A stretch of DNA of 59,181 bases from a virus (taxonomy: Duplodnaviria; Caudoviricetes): the IMG/VR virus record IMGVR_UViG_3300035670_000237, positions 1 to 59,181 of that record. One strand, given 5' to 3'. The notes under the pieces are model-generated. The model was given only the letters and a program-made list of their open reading frames with translations. It was not told the DNA's origin and did no database searches. Position numbers and translations under genes: made by a program. This document shows positions 1,673 through 15,346 of the stretch, piece after piece (the first letter of the stretch is position 1; every line of letters starts with the position of its first letter).

Positions 1673-4600
1673 CTACTGCGTCACCGCCTCCGACCGAATC
1701 ACTCTTTGGCGCTGAATCACCCGGACCCGTGAGTTCAGGTCGCGCATGGTCTCGGCGATCTGCTCGTCAACCTCGCGCATGCGGTCGCGGTAGCCCTCGG
1801 GCTTCTGCGTGGCAAGGTCGCGGCGCAGTTGGCGCAGCTCGCTGACACGGCGGCTGTACCGATCGGCGGCGCCGGCCAGTGCGGCCAACGGCTCGGCGCG
1901 CCGGAAGCCGTCGACGTCCTCCTGGTTGCGCGCGCGGCCCCTGAGCTCGTTCTCGACTTGGTTGATCGCCTTGACGTTCTCGTAGAACTGGTCGCTCTGC
2001 CCTGCGGTGCCGCGCGTGGTGCCCGCCAGGCGCCCGATCAGTGGCACCTTGTAGAGCGGCAGCTCGTCCCCGGTCACGGGGCTCGCAACCGTCGTCATCA
2101 ACTTGGACGTTTCACGCCAGACACCGCCCAGAAGCTGCCCGATCACATAGTCGATCTGGTCGGGCGTCGGGCTCCAGGCGCCAGGCTGGTACTTCGTGCC
2201 GCCGGTCACGGCGTTGATCGCCGTCGCCAAGCCCTTGCCCACCGGGCTGGCGGTGTCCTTGGTCAGTGCGGTGCCGGGCTGTGGATCAAGCGGACTGCGG
2301 TCCTCTCGGTAGATCGGCCGCCCCGTCCAGTCCTTGTTGTCGAGCAGCGCCACAACTGGGTCGACCACAGTTGGGGCAACCAACTGAGCCGGTGGCTGAG
2401 CTCCCCCCAGCGGGTTGAACGCATCCAGCAGCACCCCCATCAGCGCGCCCAACTGCTTGCCGGCGGTCTTGTCGCTGCCGCCCAGCGCGAACTCCACCGA
2501 CAGCCGCCCGATGTTGGGCAGGAAGTTGAAGCCCAGCGGCAGGGGCAGCGCGATGTAGTCCTTGCCGGACACCGGGATGATGAGGCTTCGCTCCTTGACG
2601 AAGTCCGGGATCTTGCTCCAGTTGTCGTCGTCCTCGTCGTCGTCATCAAAGCCACCCATGACTGCCATGCCTACCAGCGTGTTGATGGCGCCCAGCGCCA
2701 CACCGCCGGCCATAATCTTGCGGCCGGCTGGTCCCGTCAGCGTCTCGACCATGCGCGCGGTGCCCTGCACGGCCGCATTGAAGAACGCGTACCAGGCATT
2801 GATGTCGCGAGTCTTCTGGCCCTTGCGGTTGAAGTTGACCGTCAGGTTCTTGGCCAGGCTGGCCGCGCGCTCCCTGCTCATGCCCTCGTCCAGTGCGACC
2901 TTGTAGGCGGCGACGCGGACGGCGTTCTCCATCGACTCGTTGTAGTCGCTCAGCCAGTCGACGAATGCGTGCGCCACCCTCGACACCTGCCCGCGCTCCA
3001 GCGCTGCGACCTCCTTGGTCAGCGCCTTGGCGCGGTCCTCGATGTCGGCAAACAGGTCTCGGAAACCGGTGGTGCCGCCCACCTCCTCAAGGTCGCGCCA
3101 CAGCGCAACCCAGCGGGCATTGACGGGGTTCGCCGCGCCCTTGCCGCGCTCCTGGCGGTACACCGCGCGCATCGCGTGATGCACGCCGGCCAGTACCTGC
3201 CGCTCCTTGCCGGCCAGCGGCGTGGTGCTCAGGTTGAGCGCGGCGCTTCCCACGTCGCGCATGAAGTTGACGATGCCAAAGATCGGGTTGTATTGGGTGT
3301 TGACGCTGGCAAACCAGCGCGTGCCCACGGACACCGTCCGCGTCACCCAGCCCAGCTCTCCGATGTCTGCGGACTTCACCGCCGTGGCCAGCCGCACCGC
3401 CTGCGGGTTGCGCTGGTCGAAGATGATGCTGACGTCCTTGCCGCCGATGCGCAGCGTCACGACGTTGGGGTCTTTGCGGTAGGTGCCGTCCATCTCGCGC
3501 CGCACCGTGCCCGTCACCGGGTCGAGGTACTTGCGCATGGGCGGGCTGCCGATACGCCAGAAGTCGCGCAGCGGGTTCTGCCCCACCAGCAGGTACAGAC
3601 GCTGCAGCACGAGGTTCTTCTCGCCCCGCGTCAGCGCCGCCTCGCGCTGCATGGCAATGTGCGCCAGGATGTTGGTGACGCGCTGGTTGCTGCCCACGCG
3701 CTCGCGCACGCCTGAGCCGCGCACGTTGAAGCCTTGGCCAATCGGGTGGCTTTGGCTGTCCGGGTGGGCCTCGTCGCGGTGCAGCGGGATGTAGTGCTGG
3801 TACTGCGCCCGCCAGGCGTCGGCGGTCTGCCGGTTGACCAAGCCGTAGCGCTCCAGCGATTCCAGGGTCTTGGCGTTGATGCCGTCCACCTGGGCCGCCA
3901 GGGCGTCCAGGTCGGAACGCTGCGCCGGCGTCAGTGCGGCCATGACGGCCGCCGCCTCGGCGTCGCTCATGCCTGAGAGCGACAGGCGCTCGTCCTCGGT
4001 GCCAGGAAACGGCTGCATGCGCCGCACCCCGGCCAGGCGCTCCTGGTGCTGGGCGACGGCCTGCTCAAGGGCCTGTGTGGCGGTGCCTTGGGCCATGGCG
4101 CGCTGCAGCAGCACCCGTACGGCCTTCAGTTCAGCCTCGGCCTGCAGCTCCAGCGCGTCCAGCTCGGCCCGGCTGGGGTTGCGCTGCGCCATCGCGGCAT
4201 TGGCCTCGGGCGCGTGGCGGGCGTGCAGAAAGCGCTCCAGCGTCTCGAGATCCACGCCGCGCGTCTTCATGTCCTGCAACAGCGGCCGGAACTCGTTGGC
4301 CAGAAAGTCCTCGGTACGCGTGGCCAGCCGCTTGTGGAACAGCTCCTCGCCCAGGTAGGCGTCGTTCAGGTCGCTGATCGTGCCGCCCAGGGCCTGGATG
4401 CGCTCCTGAACGCGCTTCAGGTCGATGAAGCGGTCCTGCAGCTTGTAGCGCAGCGCGTCCCAGCCCTCCATGCTGGTGAGGTTCATCACCCGCTGCTTCA
4501 GGGCGTGCCAGCGGTTGCGCTGCACCGGGCCGGGCTGCGGCGGGGGGGTGGGGCCGATGGAATTGCGGCTGAACATGGGCGTGGCGTTGCCGTCATCGCC

Positions 4601-7600
4601 AGGCTCTGCCATACTGGCGGGGCTTTCCGCTCCCGCTGGGCTGCCTCTCTGCGTAGAGTCCCGGCGCGTAGCCCCGCCCAGTGATGGGGGGACGGCATCG
4701 GAGGCCAACGACCCAGCCCCCATTCCATCGCGGGAGAGCGAAGCGGCGGATTGCGTAGGCGCAGCGGCAGCATAACCGGCCGGGCGCGCATCTGGGTCGA
4801 TCTCGAATGCGGTGATGATCCAGGCATTTGACCCGGGGTTCTTCACCAGCCCGACCCGATAGCCATCGTGCTCGATCTTCACCGAGGTCGATGAATTCGA
4901 TTCGACTCGCTTGGTCTCGGCGCCGGAAGCAACCGCGCGAACCATCTCCGCCAGAACCCGCAGAGCCTCGGCCTCAGTGAGCCCGTCCTTACGCATGCGG
5001 GCCTCGATGATGTGTGACAGGCCGCGGCCTCCGACGGTTCTGCCAGACGACTTGACCTTACCCTCGTCGCCCCACACGAAGTCCACCCACCCCATGCCGC
5101 TGCGGAACATGGCGCGGTGAACGGTGGTCTTGCCGGTGACGGCCTCGGCCAGCGCGCGCAAGCCGCGGTCGATGTTGGCGGTGACGCTCTTGGTGGCCGA
5201 ACGGCTCAGCGCCACGGCCGGCGTGCGCGCGCCGTCAGCGTTCGCCCCCATCGCGCCCCGCTCCACCCACCCCCGCGCCGGCAGGATGTAGCTGCGGATG
5301 ATCTCGGCGTCCGTCAGGCGCAGGCCCTCGAGGCCGGGCACGTTCTGGCGCAGCCAGGTGCGCAAGGCGGCCACGGCGCGCTTCACGAAGCCCAGTTCGG
5401 GCTGGGCCTTGGCCATGTCGGCAAGGATTTCCTCGGCCACCTCGCGCCGCTCGCGGCGCAGCAAGGCCACAGCGGCTGACTCCAACGCGGCGCCCGACAG
5501 CGGCTCCATGCCCGCCTGCCGGCGCAGGCTGTTGACCCGCTCGCGCGAGGCGGCCAACGTCAGCACCTTGCCGTACTGCGCCGCCTTGGGTCGCATCAGG
5601 TCGGGCCGCGCCAGGCCAATCTGGTCGAGGATGCCGTTCAGGGCATCGCCAAAAACGGCGCGCAGCCCGTAATGGCCCAGCACTTCGTGGAACAACGCCT
5701 CCATCGCCTGGCGGGGCGACGCGATGCCGTCGGCCACCAGGTACACCACGCCGTCGTAAAAGAACCCATCCGGCGAGCCGGTCGCGCCAGCCTCGCGCTG
5801 CGCAGCGTCCTCGTCGCGCACGGCTTCAGGCACGCGTGGATCCTGCATCGACTGCACCACCACGATGGACGGGCGCTGCGCCCAGCGCGACACCACGGCA
5901 TCCACCACCGACTGCACCGATGCCGACGACATCAGCCGCGCGCCACCGGCACGGCTGAACGCCGGCTTGCCGGGCTTGGACTCGCCCAGGCCCAGCACCT
6001 CGCGCGCCACATCCGGGTTCGACCCCGGCATGAGCTTGATGTCCTGGCGCCCGGTGAGCAAGTGCTCCACCGCCCGCTCCAGCGCAGCCTCGCTCACCGA
6101 AACGGCGGACATCAGGTTGCCGCGCTTGTAGAAGTCCTGGCCAAGGGCTCGCGTCAGCGCCTTGTCCAGGTAGAGCTTGCCGCCTTCGCGCTTGGATGCG
6201 GGCGTGGTCAGCGTGAACTTGCCACCACTTGACACGATGCGCAGCGCGCCGGTGCCATCGACCACCACCGCACCATTGCCCGCGCGCCGCAAGAACTCCA
6301 TCACCCGCGCCGGGGTGCCCAGCGACAGACTTGACCCGCTCTTCTTGGCCTTGTCAAAGTCAAACCCACGTCGCATCAGCACGCCCTGGGCCACGCTGCC
6401 GTCGTCGCGGGTGTAGCTGACGATCTGGCCCGGATACTTGGCAAACCCCGCCAGCAGGTTGCCAGTCACCATCCAGCGCCGCTCGCGCCGCACGTTGCCG
6501 GCCGAGTACAGGTCGAACAGGTCTTGAACCGCCAGGGTGCGCGAGCCGCCGTCGTCAGTGGGCAGGCTGATGTTGGCGCTCTGATCGCGCACTGTGAAGG
6601 CCCGCCCGATCTGGCTGGCTGTCAGCGTCAGCGAGCGTGCGTCGCCGTTGGCCAGGGCAATCGTCATCTTCCATGACGAGCCGGCCGACGGGTTCTTGGT
6701 GGCGCCGGTGTTGCTGATGGCGGTGATGACGCCATAGGTGGGCACCTGCTGGGCATCCAGCACGGTGACGCTGTCGCCCACCGCGTGACTGCGCAGCATC
6801 GCCTCCACCAGGTTCTTCTGCAGGTTCGCGGTCTCCACCTCGCGCTGTGTGCGCATCGGGTCGGCACCGGCAGCCTCTCGCCTGGCCCTGAGGTCGGCCA
6901 CAAAAGCCGCATGCCTCTTGTTCAGGCCAGCGATGAGCTCGGCCGCCAGCTGCGACGCCGTCTTGTCGCCAAGCGTCTGCGCCACGGCTGCGGCCACCTC
7001 GGCGCGCGTCATGGGCTTGACGGTGCGCGCCACGTCCACCTTCTCCATGTAGGAGGGCTCGGCAAAGCGCGACGTCATGGCCCGGTTGTCGCCCTCGCGC
7101 GGGGCAGTGATGGCCTCGCTGCTGAGCGTGCGAGCGCCCAGGTCCAGCGCCCGCGCCTCCAGCTTGTTGGTGCCCATGGCGTCTTCGCGCTCGATGAGCT
7201 CGGTGTAGCGCTGCACCAGGTCGGCGTACACGGACTCCTGCTGCTCAAGCGGCAGGATGGGGATGTAGCCCGTGAGCTTGCGAATGAGCTCGTCGTCAGC
7301 CTTGGTCACATCGTCCGGTACCGGCAACCGCTCGTTGCCGCCCAGCGCTGCGTGGATCTCAGGGTTGTCCATCAACAACTCGGCGGCCACCTGCCCGCCG
7401 TAGTTGTTCATGAAGTCGACCACGCCCTCGGCCGTGACCGCGCTTTTGCGGCTGGCTGTGGTGTTGGCGTTCAGCGACGCCATCTTGTTCATCAGCACCG
7501 CTGCCGGGCGCATCTCGGCCGGGATGTCGGCCATGGCCTGGGTGTAGTCGGGCGTCACCACCTGCCCGGTGCGGTGCACACGCCCGAGCATCTGCATGTG

Positions 7601-10600
7601 GGTGTCGATGTTCTTCTCGGCCTGCACGATGATCATGCGCCGCTTGCGCTGATCCTTCACCTTGTCCGAGGCGTGAAGCGACAGGCCCGTGGATCCCGAC
7701 TGGTTGAGGATGATCGCGTCGATGTCGCCGTTGTTGAAGCCCCGGATGGCGCGCAGACGCTGGCGAATGTCAGCGTTGCGCCCGGCCAGCGTCGGCACGG
7801 TGCCGCCGCCGTAGTTGACCGTCATGCTGCGGCCGGTGATCTCGTCGCTGCTGAAACCGGCCGCACGCAGCCGGTCGTGCATGAAGTCGATCGGCGAGAT
7901 GGGCGCTGCGCCGAAGCCCGCGCGGCCGATGAAGTCGGCCGTCTGCTGGTACTGGCGCACCAGCACCTCGCCCAAATCGTTATCGGTGAGGCGGTACTCC
8001 TCGTCCGCCTGGCTGCCAGGGCGCTTGATCTTGACGATGCGCTGCTTGTCCAGGTAGCGCAGGTACAGGTCACGGAACGAAAGCGCCACCGGCTCGCCGG
8101 AGCGCAGGCCCATGTCCTCCGCGTAGTCCTTCAGGAACGAACCCATGGTGTTGGACACGGTGAGGACGACCTTCTCGCCGGCCTTCAGCCGCTCGATGGC
8201 GTACTCCACCGAGTTCTGCACCTTCAGCGCCAGCAGCATCTGGTCGATGAGGTTGTGCATGATGGCGCCGAAGTTGGCGCCGGCCACCGAGGTCTTTTCG
8301 CCGCCCACCGATCGCACCACGGCGGCCTCTTTGTCGAACGCCTTTTTCATCGAATCGACGGCCGCCTCCTTGGCGCGCGAGAACGCCAGGATCTGCCGCA
8401 TCGCGGTCGCCATGTTCTCGGCGGTGGCCTTGTCCACCGTGGTCTTGCGGGTGTCGTAGCCCACACCGGCGAATGTGCGCTCGCGCCGGATGTACTGCCC
8501 GTCTTCGGTCAGCATCGTGGCCACGATCTGCTGCATGGGCACGCCGCCCTCCTGGATGGCCGGCGCCAGGTCGATCGGCCGGTCCACCGCCAGCATCATG
8601 TTGGTGCTGGAATACAGGTCCATCACGTCCGGCCGCTTGGCATAGGTGGCCGAGCTGAAGAAGCTGCCGGCGGAGTTGCGCACCAGCTCGCGCGCAAAGC
8701 CCGCCCGGCCAAGCTTGTTCTCGCCGTCCGCCTCGGCCTCGCGCGCCTCCTTGGAGCGCGCCTGCCGGGTGGAGGTGCCGCCCGCGTTGTGGCTTTCGTC
8801 GAAGATGACGTAGCCTCCATCGGCAAAGCGCTGCAGGAAGCGCATGCGCGCGGTGGCCTTGCCGGCCACGGTCTGCGTCTGGCTGTAAGTGGTGAAGATG
8901 ACCTTGTACTCGCCCAGGTTGCCGCTGGCGGCCATGCCGTCCAGCAGCTTGGCCAAAGCTTCCTTCTGTGCCGGCGCGCGCAGCGTGCGCTCCAGCTCCA
9001 CCGCCTCGCCATCAACCTCGCGGCGCAGCGCGTAGGGAATCGACTCGCTGCCGTTGGTGATCAGGATGGCCGAGCGCTGCGCCTGCAGCCCGAGCTCGTC
9101 GGCCATGCCGATGTCGTCCAGGTCGCGCACCATGTCGGCGTACAGGTTCGGCTTTTCGGTGATGAACACCGGCACCTTGCCGCTGCGCAGCGCGTAGCGG
9201 ATCATCGCGGCCACCACGCGGCCCTTGCCGATGCCCGTCTGGTCGCCAATGACGAAGCCCGCGTCAGACTCGGCGTTGTAAATGGCCAGGGCCAGCGCAT
9301 CCACCTGCTCGGCACTGAAGTAACGGCCAAGCTCTGCAGTGTCATAGCCGAGCTTGCCGGCCACGTAGGTGTCGATGTCGCCAACGGCCTCCTGCACACG
9401 GGCCAGCGAGGCCAGCACCGCGTCGCGCATGCCGCGCGGCACCAGCGTGCCCACCGAAGCCACGCTCGAGGCGGGCGCGTACGCCACCTGGGTGGCGGTC
9501 TCCTGTTCCTGGCCCCGGCGGTCGGCCGGCCGGTTCAGCGCGGGCTCATTTCGGCCAGCGCCATCTCCACCCACGCCAGCAGGTCGGTTTCCTCCATCTC
9601 CTCGAGCAGCCCCTTCATTCGCGGCGTCATTCGCGCCGGCACCTTGGCCGGGAATGGGTTGCGGTAGCTGTTCATTGCCAGGCTCAGCACCGTTCGCAGC
9701 TCCAGGTTGTGCCCGAACAGGCTGCCCCCCGCGTGGTACGGCTGGTCGATCGCCATCAACCCCATTGCCGACAGCGCCCGGTTGGCGATCTCCAGACCGT
9801 CCGGGTCGCGCGCCGTCATTGCGTTGATCCGGTCCTCCAGGGCGAACCGCCACCGCGACTCCGTCAGCTCCTCGCCCGCCGGGACCATCACCGCGCACAG
9901 CCCCGGCTGCACGAACGGCGGGCACCACGGCACCATCGCTTGCGCCTGGTTCGTTGGCGGCGTTGGCTGGGGCGACTGCGGTGTTTGCGGCGTTGCCATC
10001 AATCTTCTCCTTCAGTGCGGCCCACGAATCGTAGCGCGCAGGCAACTCGGCGGCCGGCATCGCGCGCGTGGCCTTGCCGCGCCCGTTGATGACGATCACG
10101 TCCACCGGGTAGCTGGCACCCTGCCGCGCGTAAAGGCCACCGTCGAGCGTGAAATGGTCGGTGACGTTGTACTGCTGGTAGAGCCGGAAGTAGAACTCCC
10201 GCTTGGCCTTGGCGCGATAGCCCTCGCGCAGCGCCTCGTCGCTGGTGGCGTTGACGCCGCCGACGATCAGCACCGCGCGGCCGTCGTCCTTGAGCGCCTG
10301 CAGTGCGCGCAGCGCAATGGCGTGATCGATTTCGCGCGTGCCGTAGTTCGGCGCGGCGGCCCAGATGATCGGCTGCCCGTCGTCGTCGCGCACGACGCCG
10401 AACGGCGGGTTCATGAGCTCCACATCCAGCGTGCCGGCTGGCGCCATGTCAGACGTGGCGGCGTTGTTCTGCGTGACGGTGAAACCAAGCGCCCGGGCAT
10501 TGGCCGCACGCTCGTCGTTCAGCTCGTTGACCACGGCATCCTCGGGCGCCACCTCCAGCAGCAGCATGGTGTTGCCCGCTGTGGGCTCGCCCACCCTGTC

Positions 10601-13600
10601 ACCAGGCTTGACGCCCGCCAGGCGCGACGCCAGAAAGGCCAGCGGCACAGGCGTGCTGTACGCCTGCTCACGCACGCTGGTGGATGAGCGCATGCCCAGC
10701 GTCGGCTGCAGCCCGTACAGGTTGACCAGGCGGTCGTAGATCACACCGTCGGCGCGTCCCTGAGCACGTGCGGCCTGCACGATCTCCCGCGCAGCCAGTA
10801 CAACGGCGTTCTCCACCGTCTCGTCGGCCCGCTTGGCAGCCTGAGAACCCGGCTCGACGGCCTGCCCGGTCAGCTCGGCAATAACCTTGCGCGCCTCGAC
10901 GATGGTCTTGAAGCCGTCGCCGCCGATGAAGAGGTCAGCAATGGCCTGCGCCAGGGCCTGCCGGCCAGCAGCCGTGCCCAGGGAAGGGCTGGCCGCTGCG
11001 CCAGGCCGTGCTGGTGCGGGAGCTGGTGTGGGAGCTGGTGTGGATTCCTCGGCCTTCAGTGCGGCATCGATGTCCGCATCCTCGACATCGGCCGCACGGT
11101 CCATGTCGGCCTTCAAACCAGCCGCGCGCGGGTCGTTGCGCACAGCCAAGTACCAGGACACGAGGTAAGGCTTCACCGCGTCGCCCAGGTCGTCCACCAT
11201 TGCCCGGGCGTAGGCAGCGAATCGGCGCGCGCCGCGCTCGATGTGATACCCCGCCAGCGTGATGCCGTCCAGCATCGTCTCGGGGTCGATGCCCGACTGC
11301 AGTCGCCCGAGCTTCTTGCGCAGACGCTCGCGCGCCGCATTGGCCGCCTCTTCCGTGAAGATTGTGTTGGCGCTGCCAGGCGGGGTGGGCGCTGGCGCCT
11401 GGGCTGGTGCCTGGGCTGGTGCCTGGGCCGGTGCCTGGGCCGGTGCCTGGGCTGGTGCCTGGGCTGGTGCCTGGGCCGGTGCCTGGGCTGGTGCTTGGGC
11501 CGGTGCTTGGACTGGTTCCGCTGCAGGCGGAATAGGCGCCGGAGTCGGCGCCGGAGTCGAAATCGCCTCCGCGACAGTCGGATCGCTCGACGTGCCAATG
11601 ATGCCGCGCAGCTTCGTGCGCACCGGCTTGGGCATGTTGTTCCACAGCACGCGGTCCGGCAGGCTCTTTGCGCCGACCTGACTCAGCGCGGCGCGCTTGC
11701 CGGCGGGCGTCATGGACTGCCACCACGCCTCGGCCGCGGCGTCATCAGCCGGCGCCCCAGGCTGCTGCCCAGGCGCGCCGGCCGGCGGGTTCACCGCATC
11801 GGGGGCTTCTTGCCCCCCTTGCCCTTCTTGCCGTAGCCCATTGGCTGCTCCTTGCTGAGTTGAGGCCGCGCTTGGAGCCGGGGCGGCCGGTGCCGGCTTC
11901 TTCCTGTACCGCACCACGTCGCGGTCCATGTCCCACGAGGCACCTGGCTCTCGGGCAACCTCGTACTCGCGATCCGGGTTGGCTTGAAAGGCCGCGTTCA
12001 CCGCGATGTTGAAGGCTTTGCGGTTTTGCAGGTCAGATTCGAACGTGCCGCGCTTGAGAGTCTGGCGGTACAGCTCGGTGAGCGCGCTGTCCTCAACCCA
12101 CTTGCCCTCATCAAAACGCTGACGATCCAGCTGCTGCCGGCGCTGGCGGCGACGGTCAGCATCAAGACGCTGAATCAACTCACGGACCTCACGCTGCAGG
12201 CGCGACGTGCCCTCGAAATTCCGCTCCGCGTCGAAGTACTCCTCCTGCAGCACGCCCTCGGCCGCCTCAATGCTGGGCGCGTTGCGGATGCGATCCAGCC
12301 GATCCGCCTGGCGAGATTCGTAGGTGTCTGTTGCGGTCGTCGCGGACGGTTGCGCAGCGGCCGGTGCCGAAACGTCTACTCCGCTGCCGGTGGCTGCTGC
12401 ACCTGCGCCCTGCGCGCCAGTTCCGTCCGCGCCCTGCGGATCAGAGCCTGCCCGTTGCGAACCAGCTCCAGGTCGTTGTCCAGCTGGCCCATCTGCAGCT
12501 GCATCTGACCCAGGCGCAGGGCCTGCGCCGGGAAGTTCTCCACCGTTCGCGGCAGGCTCTTGGCCTGTCTGGGCTGGCTGGGCTGCTGGGGCTGCTGGGG
12601 CCGCTGGAGCGCCGGGTTGGGATCCTGCGACATTGAGGTCATTGGGGACATTGGCGGCTCCTTCGGCAGCGTTGTTCAGAGACTGCAGCGCTTGCAGCGG
12701 GGTGGGCGCGTCATCGAACAGGCCCATGCCCGTACCAGCGGACAGCGCCGCATTGACATACCCGTCCAGGATGGACGCCACCTTCTCGCGCCCGCGCGCC
12801 CGCGTCAGGTTCTGCCCGCCGTAGAGCACGCGCAGCGCCTCCACGGTCAGCTCGTCGGCCGGTCGGCCGGTTTCCAGGTCGACCTGGTTGGCCATGTCCA
12901 ACAGGCCCTTGCGGCCGCGTCGGGCGGTACGCACCATCTCCACGGCGCGCATCAGGTCGGCGGTGATGTCGAAGCCTGGCTCCACCACACCCGAGCGCGC
13001 CATGTCGCGCATCAGGGCCCAGCTGCCGGCCGCCTGGCGCAGCGCGCCGCCGATGGCCGAGATGTCGGTGTCGTTGCTCTCGTACAGCTCACCCACCAGA
13101 TCAGGGCGGTCGTAGGCATTGGCCAGCAGCGCAGCCTCCATGCGGCGGCGACCATCCTGCGACAGCATGCCGTCCGCCGTCATCAGCGTGGCGGTGTCCT
13201 GACCGATGCCGCGCAGCCGACCGACGAAGCCTCGCGCAAAGTCCAGGTTGGCCATGGCGTCCATGTCGCCGCCGCGGTACAGCGACAACAGCCCGGCATC
13301 AATGAGGCGGGCGTCGCCGGCGGCAAGCTCCTGCGCCGTCAGTCCCATGCCCTGGCCCTGGCTCTTGGCGGCCATGTTGGCGGTGTTGTCGCGCTCGGAG
13401 TACAGGCGCACCAGCACAGGACGCTCAAGTTGCGCCACCGCGGCCGGGTCCACGCCGTGGGTCTGCGCATCGGCCACCAGCTCGGCCTTGTAGCGCTCGG
13501 CCGTGCCGCGCTGCCAAGCCTCGCGCAGGCCGGCCGTGCGGCCATTGTTCAGCGCAATCAGGGTTCCCGGCGTCTGCTGCGCAAAGGCCGGATTGGCGCT

Positions 13601-15346
13601 TCCGTCGGCAAAGTTGGATGGCTGCAGCACAGCGGCATCCACCACGGCATAGCGAAACGGCACACGCTGACCATCGGCCATCACAGCCACGTCCTCGCGG
13701 CCCAGGGCGGATGGCTGCACGGGGGCGCCCGCATCTCCCACGGCGAACACCATTGGCGCACCCGTGTCCGGCGAGCGACTGGGGCCCAGGCGCATGTAGT
13801 CCGGATCAGCGGCAATCTGCTGCATCTGCGCCACCGACGCCGCGCGCGTTCGGTCTCGGTTCTGCAGGTTCTGGGCGGAGTCGTCCACCGATGGCGGGGC
13901 GCCACCGGTCGCCGGGGGTGTTGCAGGGGGCGGTACCGGCGCCGCGTTGGCCAGCGTGGCCGTTGGTGCAGCCGGTGACGCCGCGGGTGATGCCCCGGGC
14001 GGTGCGGGCGGTGGCGCGGACAGATCCGCATCCGAATCATCCTGCAGCCGCTGCAGCAGGCCATCGAGCTCGCTTTCCTCGGCGTCGGTAAGTGCGCGGG
14101 TCTGCGACAGCAGCATCAGCGTGTTGATGCGCTGCATGTCGTCTGGGCTGATGAATACGGCCGACAGGGGTGTGGCGGTTCCGGACGAAGCGGGCGGCGT
14201 TCCAGGGCCGGATCCCGGTGGCGTAATGGGCGGCGTTCCAGGAGTGGCCCCAGGAGCACCTGGAGCACCTGGAGCACCTGGAGCACCTGAGGCACCTGAG
14301 GCCTGCGCCGGACCACGCGGGCCCATCAGGCCGCCCTGCGTCGCCACATCGACGCCCCCGCCCAGGCCAAAGCCCAGCAAGCCGGCCACGGCCAGCTCCT
14401 TGGCGGCAGATGTGCCGCTCGGCACCTCGCCCGTGCCGACCGCTCGGCCGGTGATCTGGCCTGCCGTCTCGCCAATCTCCTGGGCTCCCTCACGCAGGCC
14501 TGCGCCCAGCGCCTGGCCCGTGCGCTGCACGATGCCCTGCGACGCCACCTGCTGGCCGGTAATGGCTCGCGTCAAGGCGCCCTCGGCACCGCCCCGCGTG
14601 ATGAGCCCAGCCACCACCGAAAACGGCACCGTGATGCCTGCGGCCACGTAGGCGCGATCCATCGGCGCGCCCTTGTCCAGCAGTTCGGCGAAAGTGTCCG
14701 CCGCGTTCTGTGCCGCCACCGTGCCGGTGCCAGCCCATTGCTGGGCACGCGCCACGCGGCTGGCCAGCTCAGCCCGGCCCAGTGCCTGCGCGCCCTGACC
14801 AACCGTGGCCAGACGACCGGCCGCCGCACCCACGCCAACCGGCAGGAACATGCTGCCGATGGTCGGCAGGAACTGGTCAGCGATGGCGCCCTTGTTGCGG
14901 CCCAAAGCCTGCAGCACGCCCACGGAGTCGTCCCGCATGTCGGCTTCGAAGTTGGTCCGCTGCGCTGCAGCACGGTCCGAGCCAACCACCTGGCGGATGG
15001 CTTTCATGCCCCGCTCCATGGCCCTGGAGGTATCGCCGCCCACGCGGTCGCCTGTGGCCAAACGCGCAATGTCGGCCACGCCCTTGACGGCGGTCGGGCC
15101 GATCTGCAGCACCCCAGCCGCCGCGTCCTGCGCAACGCTGCCAACGCTCAGTCCGGGAACGTCAACGCGCGGGTCCTGGTAGTCGTCAAACTGGTCAAAG
15201 AAGTTGCCTGCAGCGCCTTGCTGCATGACCTGGTCGCGCACTGCGGCCTGGGGTGCGGCAGCAGACGGCGAGGCTTCGGCTTGCGTGGTCGCGGCCACAC
15301 CCGAAGCGTCGTCGTCATCGTCAAAGCGGTCGAAGTAGTTGGCCAT
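1673..15346 (-). CDS. Giant polyvalent DarB-like virion/ejection protein (ParB-like, N6-adenine MTase, strawberry-notch SF2 helicase, zincin-like peptidase, BECR-like, LPD38-like C-terminus)
   Basis: 4557 aa ORF. QNRDR..ParB-like region (~13.4-13.9 kb); YSTP/EPTAG/NPPF MTase motifs (~10.0-10.7 kb); GDQTGIGKGR and DESH helicase motifs (~7.1-9.4 kb); HEVLGH (~5.68 kb); VDFVWG..GLSHII (~5.0 kb). Lies at the end of the virion operon. Confidence 0.88.
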   Translation of the reverse strand: MANYFDRFDDDDDASGVAATTQAEASPSAAAPQAAVRDQVMQQGAAGNFFDQFDDYQDPRVDVPGLSVGSVAQDAAAGVLQIGPTAVKGVADIARLATGDRVGGDTSRAMERGMKAIRQVVGSDRAAAQRTNFEADMRDDSVGVLQALGRNKGAIADQFLPTIGSMFLPVGVGAAAGRLATVGQGAQALGRAELASRVARAQQWAGTGTVAAQNAADTFAELLDKGAPMDRAYVAAGITVPFSVVAGLITRGGAEGALTRAITGQQVASQGIVQRTGQALGAGLREGAQEIGETAGQITGRAVGTGEVPSGTSAAKELAVAGLLGFGLGGGVDVATQGGLMGPRGPAQASGASGAPGAPGAPGAPGATPGTPPITPPGSGPGTPPASSGTATPLSAVFISPDDMQRINTLMLLSQTRALTDAEESELDGLLQRLQDDSDADLSAPPPAPPGASPAASPAAPTATLANAAPVPPPATPPATGGAPPSVDDSAQNLQNRDRTRAASVAQMQQIAADPDYMRLGPSRSPDTGAPMVFAVGDAGAPVQPSALGREDVAVMADGQRVPFRYAVVDAAVLQPSNFADGSANPAFAQQTPGTLIALNNGRTAGLREAWQRGTAERYKAELVADAQTHGVDPAAVAQLERPVLVRLYSERDNTANMAAKSQGQGMGLTAQELAAGDARLIDAGLLSLYRGGDMDAMANLDFARGFVGRLRGIGQDTATLMTADGMLSQDGRRRMEAALLANAYDRPDLVGELYESNDTDISAIGGALRQAAGSWALMRDMARSGVVEPGFDITADLMRAVEMVRTARRGRKGLLDMANQVDLETGRPADELTVEALRVLYGGQNLTRARGREKVASILDGYVNAALSAGTGMGLFDDAPTPLQALQSLNNAAEGAANVPNDLNVAGSQPGAPAAPAAPAAQPAQTGQEPAANGGELPGAGPAPGSDAAADGPAGQRPGAGSQRAGSDPQGADGTGAQGAGAAATGSGVDVSAPAAAQPSATTATDTYESRQADRLDRIRNAPSIEAAEGVLQEEYFDAERNFEGTSRLQREVRELIQRLDADRRRQRRQQLDRQRFDEGKWVEDSALTELYRQTLKRGTFESDLQNRKAFNIAVNAAFQANPDREYEVAREPGASWDMDRDVVRYRKKPAPAAPAPSAASTQQGAANGLRQEGQGGQEAPDAVNPPAGAPGQQPGAPADDAAAEAWWQSMTPAGKRAALSQVGAKSLPDRVLWNNMPKPVRTKLRGIIGTSSDPTVAEAISTPAPTPAPIPPAAEPVQAPAQAPAQAPAQAPAQAPAQAPAQAPAQAPAQAPAQAPAPTPPGSANTIFTEEAANAARERLRKKLGRLQSGIDPETMLDGITLAGYHIERGARRFAAYARAMVDDLGDAVKPYLVSWYLAVRNDPRAAGLKADMDRAADVEDADIDAALKAEESTPAPTPAPAPARPGAAASPSLGTAAGRQALAQAIADLFIGGDGFKTIVEARKVIAELTGQAVEPGSQAAKRADETVENAVVLAAREIVQAARAQGRADGVIYDRLVNLYGLQPTLGMRSSTSVREQAYSTPVPLAFLASRLAGVKPGDRVGEPTAGNTMLLLEVAPEDAVVNELNDERAANARALGFTVTQNNAATSDMAPAGTLDVELMNPPFGVVRDDDGQPIIWAAAPNYGTREIDHAIALRALQALKDDGRAVLIVGGVNATSDEALREGYRAKAKREFYFRLYQQYNVTDHFTLDGGLYARQGASYPVDVIVINGRGKATRAMPAAELPARYDSWAALKEKIDGNAANTAVAPANAANEPGASDGAVVPAVRAAGAVRGDGPGGRGADGVAVAVRPGGPDQRNDGARPGRSGDRQPGAVGNGVDGDRPAVPRGGQPVRAQPGAANGAEPGNEQLPQPIPGQGAGANDAANEGAARGDGGNRPAGVGGDGAGRNEPALNRPADRRGQEQETATQVAYAPASSVASVGTLVPRGMRDAVLASLARVQEAVGDIDTYVAGKLGYDTAELGRYFSAEQVDALALAIYNAESDAGFVIGDQTGIGKGRVVAAMIRYALRSGKVPVFITEKPNLYADMVRDLDDIGMADELGLQAQRSAILITNGSESIPYALRREVDGEAVELERTLRAPAQKEALAKLLDGMAASGNLGEYKVIFTTYSQTQTVAGKATARMRFLQRFADGGYVIFDESHNAGGTSTRQARSKEAREAEADGENKLGRAGFARELVRNSAGSFFSSATYAKRPDVMDLYSSTNMMLAVDRPIDLAPAIQEGGVPMQQIVATMLTEDGQYIRRERTFAGVGYDTRKTTVDKATAENMATAMRQILAFSRAKEAAVDSMKKAFDKEAAVVRSVGGEKTSVAGANFGAIMHNLIDQMLLALKVQNSVEYAIERLKAGEKVVLTVSNTMGSFLKDYAEDMGLRSGEPVALSFRDLYLRYLDKQRIVKIKRPGSQADEEYRLTDNDLGEVLVRQYQQTADFIGRAGFGAAPISPIDFMHDRLRAAGFSSDEITGRSMTVNYGGGTVPTLAGRNADIRQRLRAIRGFNNGDIDAIILNQSGSTGLSLHASDKVKDQRKRRMIIVQAEKNIDTHMQMLGRVHRTGQVVTPDYTQAMADIPAEMRPAAVLMNKMASLNANTTASRKSAVTAEGVVDFMNNYGGQVAAELLMDNPEIHAALGGNERLPVPDDVTKADDELIRKLTGYIPILPLEQQESVYADLVQRYTELIEREDAMGTNKLEARALDLGARTLSSEAITAPREGDNRAMTSRFAEPSYMEKVDVARTVKPMTRAEVAAAVAQTLGDKTASQLAAELIAGLNKRHAAFVADLRARREAAGADPMRTQREVETANLQKNLVEAMLRSHAVGDSVTVLDAQQVPTYGVITAISNTGATKNPSAGSSWKMTIALANGDARSLTLTASQIGRAFTVRDQSANISLPTDDGGSRTLAVQDLFDLYSAGNVRRERRWMVTGNLLAGFAKYPGQIVSYTRDDGSVAQGVLMRRGFDFDKAKKSGSSLSLGTPARVMEFLRRAGNGAVVVDGTGALRIVSSGGKFTLTTPASKREGGKLYLDKALTRALGQDFYKRGNLMSAVSVSEAALERAVEHLLTGRQDIKLMPGSNPDVAREVLGLGESKPGKPAFSRAGGARLMSSASVQSVVDAVVSRWAQRPSIVVVQSMQDPRVPEAVRDEDAAQREAGATGSPDGFFYDGVVYLVADGIASPRQAMEALFHEVLGHYGLRAVFGDALNGILDQIGLARPDLMRPKAAQYGKVLTLAASRERVNSLRRQAGMEPLSGAALESAAVALLRRERREVAEEILADMAKAQPELGFVKRAVAALRTWLRQNVPGLEGLRLTDAEIIRSYILPARGWVERGAMGANADGARTPAVALSRSATKSVTANIDRGLRALAEAVTGKTTVHRAMFRSGMGWVDFVWGDEGKVKSSGRTVGGRGLSHIIEARMRKDGLTEAEALRVLAEMVRAVASGAETKRVESNSSTSVKIEHDGYRVGLVKNPGSNAWIITAFEIDPDARPAGYAAAAPTQSAASLSRDGMGAGSLASDAVPPSLGGATRRDSTQRGSPAGAESPASMAEPGDDGNATPMFSRNSIGPTPPPQPGPVQRNRWHALKQRVMNLTSMEGWDALRYKLQDRFIDLKRVQERIQALGGTISDLNDAYLGEELFHKRLATRTEDFLANEFRPLLQDMKTRGVDLETLERFLHARHAPEANAAMAQRNPSRAELDALELQAEAELKAVRVLLQRAMAQGTATQALEQAVAQHQERLAGVRRMQPFPGTEDERLSLSGMSDAEAAAVMAALTPAQRSDLDALAAQVDGINAKTLESLERYGLVNRQTADAWRAQYQHYIPLHRDEAHPDSQSHPIGQGFNVRGSGVRERVGSNQRVTNILAHIAMQREAALTRGEKNLVLQRLYLLVGQNPLRDFWRIGSPPMRKYLDPVTGTVRREMDGTYRKDPNVVTLRIGGKDVSIIFDQRNPQAVRLATAVKSADIGELGWVTRTVSVGTRWFASVNTQYNPIFGIVNFMRDVGSAALNLSTTPLAGKERQVLAGVHHAMRAVYRQERGKGAANPVNARWVALWRDLEEVGGTTGFRDLFADIEDRAKALTKEVAALERGQVSRVAHAFVDWLSDYNESMENAVRVAAYKVALDEGMSRERAASLAKNLTVNFNRKGQKTRDINAWYAFFNAAVQGTARMVETLTGPAGRKIMAGGVALGAINTLVGMAVMGGFDDDDEDDDNWSKIPDFVKERSLIIPVSGKDYIALPLPLGFNFLPNIGRLSVEFALGGSDKTAGKQLGALMGVLLDAFNPLGGAQPPAQLVAPTVVDPVVALLDNKDWTGRPIYREDRSPLDPQPGTALTKDTASPVGKGLATAINAVTGGTKYQPGAWSPTPDQIDYVIGQLLGGVWRETSKLMTTVASPVTGDELPLYKVPLIGRLAGTTRGTAGQSDQFYENVKAINQVENELRGRARNQEDVDGFRRAEPLAALAGAADRYSRRVSELRQLRRDLATQKPEGYRDRMREVDEQIAETMRDLNSRVRVIQRQRVIRSEAVTQ
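9535..9999 (-). CDS. Putative overprinted gene (+1 frame) nested in the giant gene, 154 aa
   Basis: AAGGAG upstream of the ATG. Protein-like composition, while the main frame here is a G/A/R/D/N-rich linker. Confidence 0.55.
   Translation of the reverse strand: MATPQTPQSPQPTPPTNQAQAMVPWCPPFVQPGLCAVMVPAGEELTESRWRFALEDRINAMTARDPDGLEIANRALSAMGLMAIDQPYHAGGSLFGHNLELRTVLSLAMNSYRNPFPAKVPARMTPRMKGLLEEMEETDLLAWVEMALAEMSPR
11397..11516 (-). repeat. Coding tandem repeat, 10 x 12 nt (PAQA)n linker
   Basis: GCCTGGGCYGGT-type units on the plus strand, the last two slightly degenerate. Translates to APAQAPAQ in the giant protein. Confidence 0.95.
11791..11841 (-). CDS. Putative overprinted basic micropeptide MGYGKKGKGGKKPPMR
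   Basis: AAGGAG-7nt-ATG. Same +1 frame as the other nested ORFs. Confidence 0.3.
   Translation of the reverse strand: MGYGKKGKGGKKPPMR
12376..12651 (-). CDS. Putative overprinted gene (+1 frame) nested in the giant gene, 91 aa
   Basis: AAGGAG-7nt-ATG. Helical Q/L/R-rich product. The main frame is a low-complexity linker. Confidence 0.45.
   Translation of the reverse strand: MSPMTSMSQDPNPALQRPQQPQQPSQPRQAKSLPRTVENFPAQALRLGQMQLQMGQLDNDLELVRNGQALIRRARTELARRAQVQQPPAAE

Follow-up and report, generated by a model that had tools for sequence, protein, structure and literature searches.

In phage lambda and many other phages, Rz encloses the whole of the gene Rz1, which runs in the same direction in the +1 frame and has start signals of its own; both genes are expressed, as two small lysis proteins (the spanin) that bind each other. 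Overprinted genes are also familiar from small viruses, including phiX174 (B within A and E within D) and many RNA viruses, for which de novo birth in a tiny genome is the usual explanation. Embedded +1 phage genes of the Rz1-in-Rz type have been described (PMC5295617, PMC6139136), and in viral overprinting one frame is reported to be more constrained, the other being compositionally odd or disordered (PMC8227390, PMC6195259). Polyvalent proteins have been described as having a many-domain architecture (Iyer et al. 2017, PMC5512222), and virion association has been reported for JC1 gp69, a relative of the giant protein considered here with a different methyltransferase (MTase) region (PMC9144972). 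In the present study, we analyzed a 59,181-base IMG/VR virus record (IMGVR_UViG_3300035670_000237; Duplodnaviria, Caudoviricetes; estimated to be 97% complete), which is called the window throughout, and report that a 154-amino-acid (aa) open reading frame (ORF) nested within the gene of a giant DarB-like polyvalent protein is very probably a protein-coding gene in its own right.

Like Rz1 in Rz, this ORF is fully enclosed by another phage gene, shares its strand, is read in the +1 frame and has start signals of its own. Unlike Rz, the host is a 4557-aa multidomain virion protein, and the nested gene occupies precisely one of its interdomain linkers, where the host frame is of low complexity and is not a folded domain; the nested protein lacks spanin features (no lipobox was seen). 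The likeness to small-virus overprinting is that two frames share the same DNA and that one of them is more constrained. The differences are that the nested domain is also found in ordinary stand-alone proteins, that the nested product is predicted to be folded while the "old" frame is disordered, and that the arrangement is kept across a GC content of 0.37-0.71 in phages of about 60 kb. The accessible text of the polyvalent-protein paper (PMC5512222) contains no mention of overlapping, frameshift or linker, and the overlaps mentioned in the accessible part of the JC1 paper (PMC9144972) concern unrelated matters. No description of the nested family, its place or its breadth was found in the open-access text searched. 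What we regard as new here is a gene family, with its predicted fold, that lies nested in the linker between two domains of giant injected proteins and is kept across a very broad span of GC contents.

Results

Start Sites and Codon Phase of the Out-of-Frame ORFs

According to the ORF list and its translation, the giant ORF (1673..15346, minus strand) encodes a DarB-like polyvalent virion protein of 4557 aa. Three minus-strand ATGs, at 12651, 11841 and 9999, lie in its +1 frame and open ORFs of 91, 16 and 154 aa, respectively, which are wholly inside it on the same strand. Each ATG is preceded by the Shine-Dalgarno (SD) sequence AAGGAG, with spacers of 6, 6 and 7 nucleotides (nt) between the final G and the start codon, and each start coincides with the passage of the main frame from a structured domain into a G/A/D/R/N/P-rich stretch. 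The initial annotation had described the same frame, ATG positions and product sizes, an AAGGAG ahead of every ATG, and starts at the entry into linkers, and our check of the ORFs and translations agreed with it on all of these points; the spacing of 7-8 nt given there reflected a difference in counting.

Such ORFs could be a compositional artefact, in which a GC content of 68% combined with a hydrophobic-poor linker (few T at codon position 2) yields open +1 frames and stray SD-ATG combinations. The giant gene indeed holds 11 other stop-free +1 segments of at least 99 codons, so that ORF length alone was not unusual, and an antisense shadow ORF of 960 aa also runs across this region. Moreover, the +1 frame across the 154-aa ORF was still open in 465 of 1000 synonymous shuffles of the main-frame codons. 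Because an open +1 frame in the window alone is not improbable, the case for the 154-aa gene rests on its relatives.

The start sites and the codon phase pointed the other way. AAGGAG-N5-9-ATG sites leading alternative-frame ORFs of at least 15 aa were observed three times, whereas 500 synonymous shuffles of the whole gene gave a mean of 0.18 and a maximum of one (0/500 reached two). The main-frame GC content at codon positions 1/2/3 was 0.71/0.51/0.83 over the whole giant gene, and the value at the third position (GC3) fell locally to 0.50 in the 154-aa ORF, 0.46 in the 91-aa ORF and 0.53 in the 16-aa ORF. The corresponding +1-frame values were 0.66/0.50/0.89, 0.74/0.46/0.88 and 0.47/0.53/0.94, respectively, so that within the three ORFs the coding pattern passes to the +1 frame; the values of the 154-aa ORF resemble those of the main frame over the whole gene. 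In ten other +1 stop-free segments, the main-frame GC3 stayed at 0.75-0.93. These results showed that the SD-ATG combination and the switch of codon phase are not due to chance.

A scan for 40-codon windows with a main-frame GC3 below 0.62 flagged the places of the three nested ORFs and three P/A-rich stretches (14380-14141, 11611-11378 and 11131-10922). Two of these stretches were considered as further nested genes and rejected. The GAPGAP array at 14380-14141 (minus strand; GGTGCTCCA) is a simple tandem repeat without a plausible product on reading all frames. The APAQ array at about 11378-11611 (minus strand) is also a simple tandem repeat, in which the low GC3 only mimics the signal of a nested gene and no alternative frame gives a plausible product.

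Conservation of the 154-aa ORF at the MTase Junction

The 154-aa ORF (nested gene 1; 9535..9999, minus strand, 154 aa plus stop, +1 frame) lies between an MTase domain and a helicase module of the giant protein. It is a long form (class A) of the family described below, whose core begins at Met22 (9936). The MTase domain (10001..10729, minus strand; main frame, about residues 1540-1782) is of the N6-adenine type and carries an NPPF motif. No Pfam model matched this stretch of the giant protein, and the MTase label derives from two motifs, NPPF and EPTAGN, together with the plasmid annotations of homologues. Downstream of the linker follows a Strawberry-notch (SBNO)-type helicase module (7385..9274, minus strand; residues 2025-2654), which matched Pfam AAA_34 and Helicase_C_4.

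A first scan with the MTase domain as the query gave 12 related viral contigs, and a profile scan widened the set to 79 viral loci with GC contents of 0.37-0.71 and MTase domains of 45-78% identity. The main frame was unbroken in all 12 contigs of the first scan and up to the end of the locus in 79/79 loci. Nine of the 12 contigs gave a tblastn match to the 154-aa protein at the homologous place, read +1 to the MTase frame; eight of these matches had E 4e-54 to 8e-11 and the ninth had E 0.07. The junction itself could be inspected in 77 of the 79 fetched loci, since the other two contigs stop short of it. In 77/77 loci, a +1 open segment of 92-226 codons follows right after the MTase and contains an ATG-led ORF of 83-163 aa, and an SD-like motif lies 3-11 nt ahead of the first ATG in 70 of the 77 (AAGGAG in 46). 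Thus, linkers interrupted by +1 stops, with the SD and ATG lost, were not what these relatives displayed.

The junction segment was equally conspicuous in genomes of low GC content. Among the loci below a GC content of 0.5, it was the longest same-strand alternative-frame open segment in 30 of 36, with a median of 131 codons versus per-locus medians of 5-10 codons for the other segments. The occurrence of the ORF at the same spot in phages with a GC content of 0.37-0.50 argued against a compositional artefact. The giant genes of the AT-rich relatives contained no further SD-led or protein-like alternative-frame ORF.

Hidden Markov model (HMM) searches matched exclusively the plus strand and the +1 frame of the loci. 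Class A accounted for 49 of the 79 loci (E 1e-54 to 6e-4), and 12 matched a short form, which is about 95 aa long; among the 18 loci without an HMM match, 17 bear short-form-like (B-like) ORFs and one is incomplete. The long and short forms matched each other across their central helices in hhalign (probability 92%, E 6e-7) and are therefore assigned to one superfamily. In five short-form loci (L037, L053, L069, L089 and L009), the linker is followed not by the helicase but by another module, which in L069 is the one that precedes the MTase in the window. It is therefore the 3' end of the MTase that the nested gene accompanies. It appears that the domain order of the giant protein has been shuffled while the pair of MTase and nested gene has been kept.

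MTase-SBNO helicase fusions of plasmids and integrative and conjugative elements resemble the giant protein in that a homologous MTase (26-35% identity) is followed by a linker and then by the SBNO helicase. Three plasmid fusions at this level of identity were inspected as a negative control (L098, L100 and L101); their linkers are acidic or P/T-rich, unlike the linker described here, and the +1 frame after the MTase is full of stops. Among the plasmid relatives inspected, a long +1 ORF was found only in the closest one, on plasmid3 of Synechococcus sp. NIES-970 (L097, AP017962.1; MTase identity 51%). Its +1 open segment of 183 codons (locus 1735-2286) is unannotated, lies inside a "putative helicase" gene and matched class A weakly (E 4e-5 in a two-sequence search). 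A similar candidate was present in the cultured Bacteroides phage BS-TP4 (L099, PQ571277.1; MTase identity 37%), where an unannotated ATG-led +1 ORF of 119 aa (locus 3234-3593) lies in gp3 (5391 aa). The +1 segment of 121 codons is the longest alternative-frame segment in that locus (median 8); it has no SD and matched class A weakly (E 3e-3, two-sequence search). In the cultured Bcep22-like and Agrobacterium phages BcepMigl and Atu_ph08, the giant gene encodes an MTase of another type and contains neither such a linker nor a nested ORF.

Selection on the Two Reading Frames

We compared the nested stretch with the adjoining MTase by counting the changes that are synonymous in just one of the two frames, either the +1 frame or the main frame. 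For the nearest relatives, the +1-only versus main-only counts in the nested stretch were 12:5, 27:11, 27:12, 40:31 and 53:26. In the adjoining MTase, the same five comparisons were reversed, at 5:31, 7:53, 6:48, 29:78 and 43:104 (Fisher p 8e-5 to 2e-9). Twelve non-overlapping locus pairs yielded 502 differences in the nested stretch, which were distributed over the +1 codon positions 1/2/3 as 122/122/258. In these pairs, the +1-only versus main-only synonymous changes amounted to 222 versus 112 in the nested stretch against 20 versus 204 in the MTase (Fisher p 2e-45, a value for which several pairs come from the same lineages and are not independent). Codon conservation across the relatives thus favoured the +1 frame in the nested stretch and the main frame in the MTase. 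Judged from these substitutions, the comparisons demonstrated dual coding over 9535..9999, with purifying selection acting mainly on the +1 frame.

The +1 phase of the substitutions and the HMM homology in 49 loci are not what composition alone would produce, and neither are a model with a mean predicted local distance difference test (pLDDT) score of 95 and a stand-alone homologue, both of which are described below. For the 154-aa ORF, a compositional artefact is already contradicted by these data, and we regard it as extremely improbable.

The main-frame linker that is overprinted by nested gene 1 (9527..9999, minus strand; about residues 1783-1940) is rich in G, A, R, D, N and P. Translations of the window and 12 relatives in both frames gave an amino-acid difference of 0.63 in the main frame versus 0.55 in the +1 frame, and the third codon position of the main frame was the least variable. 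The best-conserved patch of the linker, GDGGNRPG.VGG, underlies the best-conserved +1 motif, EETDL..WVELA. In AT-rich loci (L036, L057, L047 and others), the GC content of the overlapped stretch is raised, for example 0.53 versus 0.38 for the locus and 0.52 versus 0.39, which fits selection against stops in both frames. In our reading, the composition of the linker would be largely imposed by the codons of the nested gene, and selection on the main frame would mainly keep the linker free of stops.

Start Signals of the 154-aa ORF

The SD of nested gene 1 (AAGGAG, 10007..10012, minus strand) lies 7 nt ahead of the ATG and reads Lys-Glu (AAG GAG) in the main frame. The SD and the ATG are encoded by the last conserved residues of the MTase, L-K-E-K-[LI]-[DN]-G (L-K-E-K-I-D-G in the window). 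In 13/13 distinct AT-rich class A loci, AAG GAG is invariant, and in these loci AAG and GAG make up only 0.15-0.61 of the Lys and Glu codons; the codons of the neighbouring Leu, Glu and Gln and of the second Lys vary freely. In L011, the peptide differs (E-E-V-G-G-K-L-N-G), and AGGAGG is nevertheless kept. These results showed that the start signals of the nested gene are selected as nucleotides, beyond what the host frame needs.

Another possible route into the +1 frame is a programmed +1 frameshift after the MTase, which would give a truncated ParB-to-MTase protein ending in a 130-aa domain instead of a separate protein. Two sequences are in line with this explanation: in the database relative P0043, the C-terminus of the MTase is in frame with the nested domain, and L002 has 90 open +1 codons ahead of the ATG. 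In P0043, however, the change of frame occurs within the nested ORF, whose N-terminal strands are bypassed, and an indel or an assembly error would give the same picture. In the window, a +1 stop stands four codons upstream of the ATG, and in many loci the stop abuts it (TAA ATG), which leaves no room to enter upstream; in addition, the strong SD is conserved as nucleotides at a fixed 7-nt spacing, and gene callers yield proteins of about 131 aa with this Met as their first residue. A frame open from an upstream slip site, as a frameshift product would have, was not found, and a slip motif was not otherwise looked for. The fixed SD and the close upstream +1 stops therefore point to independent initiation, and entry by frameshifting is very improbable in our judgement.

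Predicted Fold and Relatives of the 154-aa Product

The structure of the 154-aa protein was predicted with AlphaFold2 using 34 family sequences. The model had a mean pLDDT of 95 and a predicted template modelling score of 0.84 and consisted of two short strands followed by six helices. Foldseek found no match for it at E 0.001 or better in PDB and BFVD, the best Z of VIA-align against 48,161 chains was 3.1, the best E of a sequence profile against PDB was 0.16, and ESM Atlas gave no usable match. No family was found for the protein in Pfam (E up to 0.1) or in PHROGs, NCBIfam and PADLOC (E up to 0.01). Both the nested family and its predicted fold thus appear to be new. A complex prediction for the MTase domain with the 154-aa protein gave a score of 0.00, which is evidence for neither side.

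A search of 1.84 billion representative sequences returned 44 matches, and 42 relatives were left after two false repeat proteins had been set aside. Most of them are proteins of about 131-148 aa on short metagenome contigs (0.6-4 kb), where gene callers could pick that frame. Fused forms were also present, in which the nested domain follows T5orf172 and a zinc ribbon, ankyrin repeats or an unknown N-terminal domain, occurs as two tandem copies, or, in AT-rich sequences, is extended by about 210 C-terminal residues. The tandem, extended or fused members include P0037, P0041, P0044, P0030 and P0012, and most members end in S-x-S-S-L-D. P0043 (178 aa), which joins the MTase C-terminus and the nested domain in one frame, may reflect an indel or assembly error or be a natural fused variant.

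The T5orf172 fusion is the RefSeq protein WP_128000194.1 of Piscinibacter defluvii, which is chromosomal and stand-alone, with no MTase or helicase nearby. Since the nested domain forms the C-terminal part of this stand-alone protein, the domain exists outside the overlap. When the family profile was run over 400 genomes of the class to which Piscinibacter belongs, the Piscinibacter genome was the sole match (1/400; one further genome was unscored). Searches with the fused members P0041 and P0006 against viral contigs, and with P0041 against metagenome contigs, returned nothing.

The 91-aa and 16-aa ORFs

The 91-aa ORF (nested ORF 2; 12376..12651, minus strand, 91 aa plus stop, +1 frame) encodes a disordered, P/Q-rich N-terminus and a helical-hairpin core at about residues 41-84. 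Its AAGGAG (12658..12663, minus strand; 6-nt spacer) is formed from the main-frame codons GAA and GGA, which are rare in the giant gene (15% of the Glu codons and 9% of the Gly codons, respectively). The +1 GC content of the core at positions 1/2/3 is 0.80/0.39/0.91, which is of the coding type, and AlphaFold predicted the core as a helical hairpin with a pLDDT of 94-97. Two database relatives share 80-84% identity over the core and have unrelated, likewise P/Q-rich N-termini. At the homologous linker of the four closest genomes (L012, L002, L003 and L004), we found SD-led +1 ORFs of 67-74 aa with a +1 GC3 of 0.82-0.88. The cores of these counterparts differ mostly at the third positions of the +1 frame (4/1/12 and 2/0/5 among L002, L003 and L004, and 10/8/19) and are more alike in the +1 frame than in the other frames (identity of 41/46 versus 33/47, the main frame, and 32/46).

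The 16-aa ORF (micro-ORF 3; 11791..11841, minus strand, 16 aa plus stop, +1 frame) encodes a K/G-rich peptide, MGYGKKGKGGKKPPMR. Its AAGGAG (11848..11853, minus strand; 6-nt spacer) is formed from the rare main-frame codons CAA and GGA and is kept in L012 and L004. The counterparts there encode K/G-rich peptides of 15 aa (L012) and 14 aa (L004), with AAGGAG, a 6-nt spacer and an ATG. The +1 GC3 is 0.94 in the window and 0.93-1.0 in the relatives.

Several observations counted against reading these two ORFs as genes, and they would fit an explanation in which only the 154-aa ORF is a gene and the other two signals are leftovers or coincidences in fast-evolving linkers. Neither small ORF was seen outside the closest clade of the window among the relatives examined, and selection in the +1 phase for the 91-aa ORF was seen only within the clade of L012 and L002-4. 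The 91-aa copy of the window is no closer to these copies in the +1 frame (11-12/46) than in the other frames (12-14/47), and its homology to them is unproven because of this lack of a +1 excess. It had no match in Pfam, PHROGs or NCBIfam, and searches with the 91-aa ORF against metagenome contigs and with P0074 against viral contigs found no DNA of its own lineage. A helical hairpin such as its core is, moreover, a structure that AlphaFold predicts with ease. Two of the five closest genomes, L002 and L003, lack the 16-aa ORF, whose length does not allow a frame test.

The explanation by leftovers or coincidence is, however, difficult to reconcile with the codon phase of the 91-aa ORF, with its SD built from rare main-frame codons, with the +1 pattern of differences and identity in the L002, L003 and L004 cores, and with the high core identity of the database relatives despite their unrelated N-termini. 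The start signals and the +1 GC3 of the 16-aa ORF recur in three lineages. Based on these results, we consider it unlikely that the 154-aa ORF is the only gene. The 91-aa ORF is probably a second gene of this kind, of more recent origin and confined to a single clade, and the 16-aa ORF is a possible, though doubtful, third.

The Giant Gene and Its Surroundings

The giant ORF matched Pfam ddrB-ParB at residues 490-648 (E 2e-20), AAA_34 at 2025-2308 (E 2e-19), Helicase_C_4 at 2502-2654 (E 4e-19), the nuclease-like PBECR1 at 3412-3516 (E 9e-15) and LPD38 at 4240-4437 (E 7e-42). It carries the many conflict-type domains that mark polyvalent proteins (LPD, ParB-like, MTase and helicase; Pfam), and the set of ddrB-ParB, MTase, SBNO helicase, PBECR1 and LPD38 is a likeness to polyvalent and DarB-like proteins. 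The DNA of the giant gene is similar to the DarB-like antirestriction genes of BcepMigl, JC1 and Atu_ph08 (Bcep22-like and other podophages). The gene stands at the end of a minus-strand structural module comprising terminase, portal, internal virion protein and tail/virion proteins; a giant gene at the end of the structural module is likewise described for Bcep22-like phages in the accessible part of the JC1 study (PMC9144972). These features indicated that the host gene would encode a polyvalent DarB-like virion protein of an already-known kind.

A promoter and terminator scan of 9300-12900 found no promoter-like site, and terminator-like sites occurred at chance level. The antisense ORF of 960 aa (6785-9667, plus strand) lies opposite the helicase and the linker and is a shadow ORF of the sort expected in coding DNA of 68% GC. 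The stretch 8500-13500 of the window was present, at full or partial identity, in four DNA sequencing runs of one study (subsurface/soil metagenomes), one of which may be the source of the record, and the contigs of these runs contained no variants within the nested ORFs. Run X2 additionally holds a diverged relative that covers pieces of the conserved domains only.

Discussion

The best explanation of these results is that the 154-aa ORF (9999..9535) is a genuine protein-coding gene with its own start, wholly inside the giant gene and one base out of frame, and we hold this with high probability. On the late mRNA of the giant gene, ribosomes would start independently at the strong SD AAGGAG, 7 nt ahead of the ATG, and nested translation would stop where the next conserved main-frame domain begins. 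The product would fold into a compact domain with two short strands and six helices and represent the long version of a junction superfamily that occurs elsewhere as a short form of about 95 aa.

Some results weigh against this explanation, besides the ease with which the +1 frame of the window stays open under shuffling. Because of the 112 changes that were synonymous in the main frame only, the main frame is not free of constraint, and to call the linker a by-product of the nested gene is a matter of degree. A tblastn search with the 154-aa protein and the family member P0004 against the cultured phages and plasmids of the collection gave no match. No RNA run is among the sequencing runs listed as holding the stretch of the window. 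The invariant positions of the family are R57 and L101; neither conserved catalytic-looking residues nor a matching family or fold that would point to a function were found.

The initial annotation had read the three ORFs as hidden nested genes and had pointed to stand-alone homologues, dual-frame codon conservation and the state of the linkers in relatives as the places where this could be checked. For the 154-aa ORF, the idea is now strongly supported by comparative, codon-phase and structural evidence and by the stand-alone homologue. Support is reasonable for the 91-aa ORF, and the idea is much less secure for the 16-aa ORF. The roles proposed there, as chaperones or inhibitors of the adjacent enzyme domains, gained no backing from the family and fold searches or from the complex prediction. 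The alternative suggested there, that formerly separate genes had been read through by the giant ORF, is compatible with these data. The domain is present in the stand-alone protein WP_128000194.1; no relative with a split MTase, small gene and helicase was found among the 79 loci, in all of which the main frame is open.

As for function, our best guess is that the product may assist either the MTase module or the giant injected protein as an accessory factor during assembly, packaging or regulation, because the nested gene always accompanies the 3' end of the MTase whatever domain comes next. With low confidence, it may serve in binding or as an adaptor, together with the MTase module or the giant protein; this guess is based on the lack of conserved catalytic-looking residues and on the occurrence of the domain as a C-terminal add-on to varied N-terminal modules. 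A wider and rather speculative reading, which we consider somewhat unlikely, is that throughout the lineage the linker after the MTase is mainly the carrier of a hidden gene, that its product is an obligate partner, with a new fold, of the MTase module or giant protein, and that the linkers of polyvalent proteins are hiding places or nurseries of out-of-frame genes, up to three of them here, in three different linkers. If this were true, the partner could be a subunit that confers specificity or regulation, or a chaperone for packaging or ejection.

Because gene callers forbid long same-strand overlaps, the family is invisible in complete phage genomes and surfaces as a "hypothetical protein" on short metagenome fragments; candidates are unannotated in the Bacteroides phage BS-TP4 and in the Synechococcus plasmid. 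The finding also means that what looks like a disordered linker rich in G, R and D can be the trace left by a folded protein encoded out of frame, which bears on how the low-complexity linkers of giant phage and plasmid proteins are read, predicted and engineered. An overlap that is kept from 37% to 71% GC would be a useful model for the co-evolution of two frames. Collectively, a confidently predicted protein without a fold match that always stands beside an anti-restriction-type MTase is a candidate player in phage-host conflict or virion assembly.

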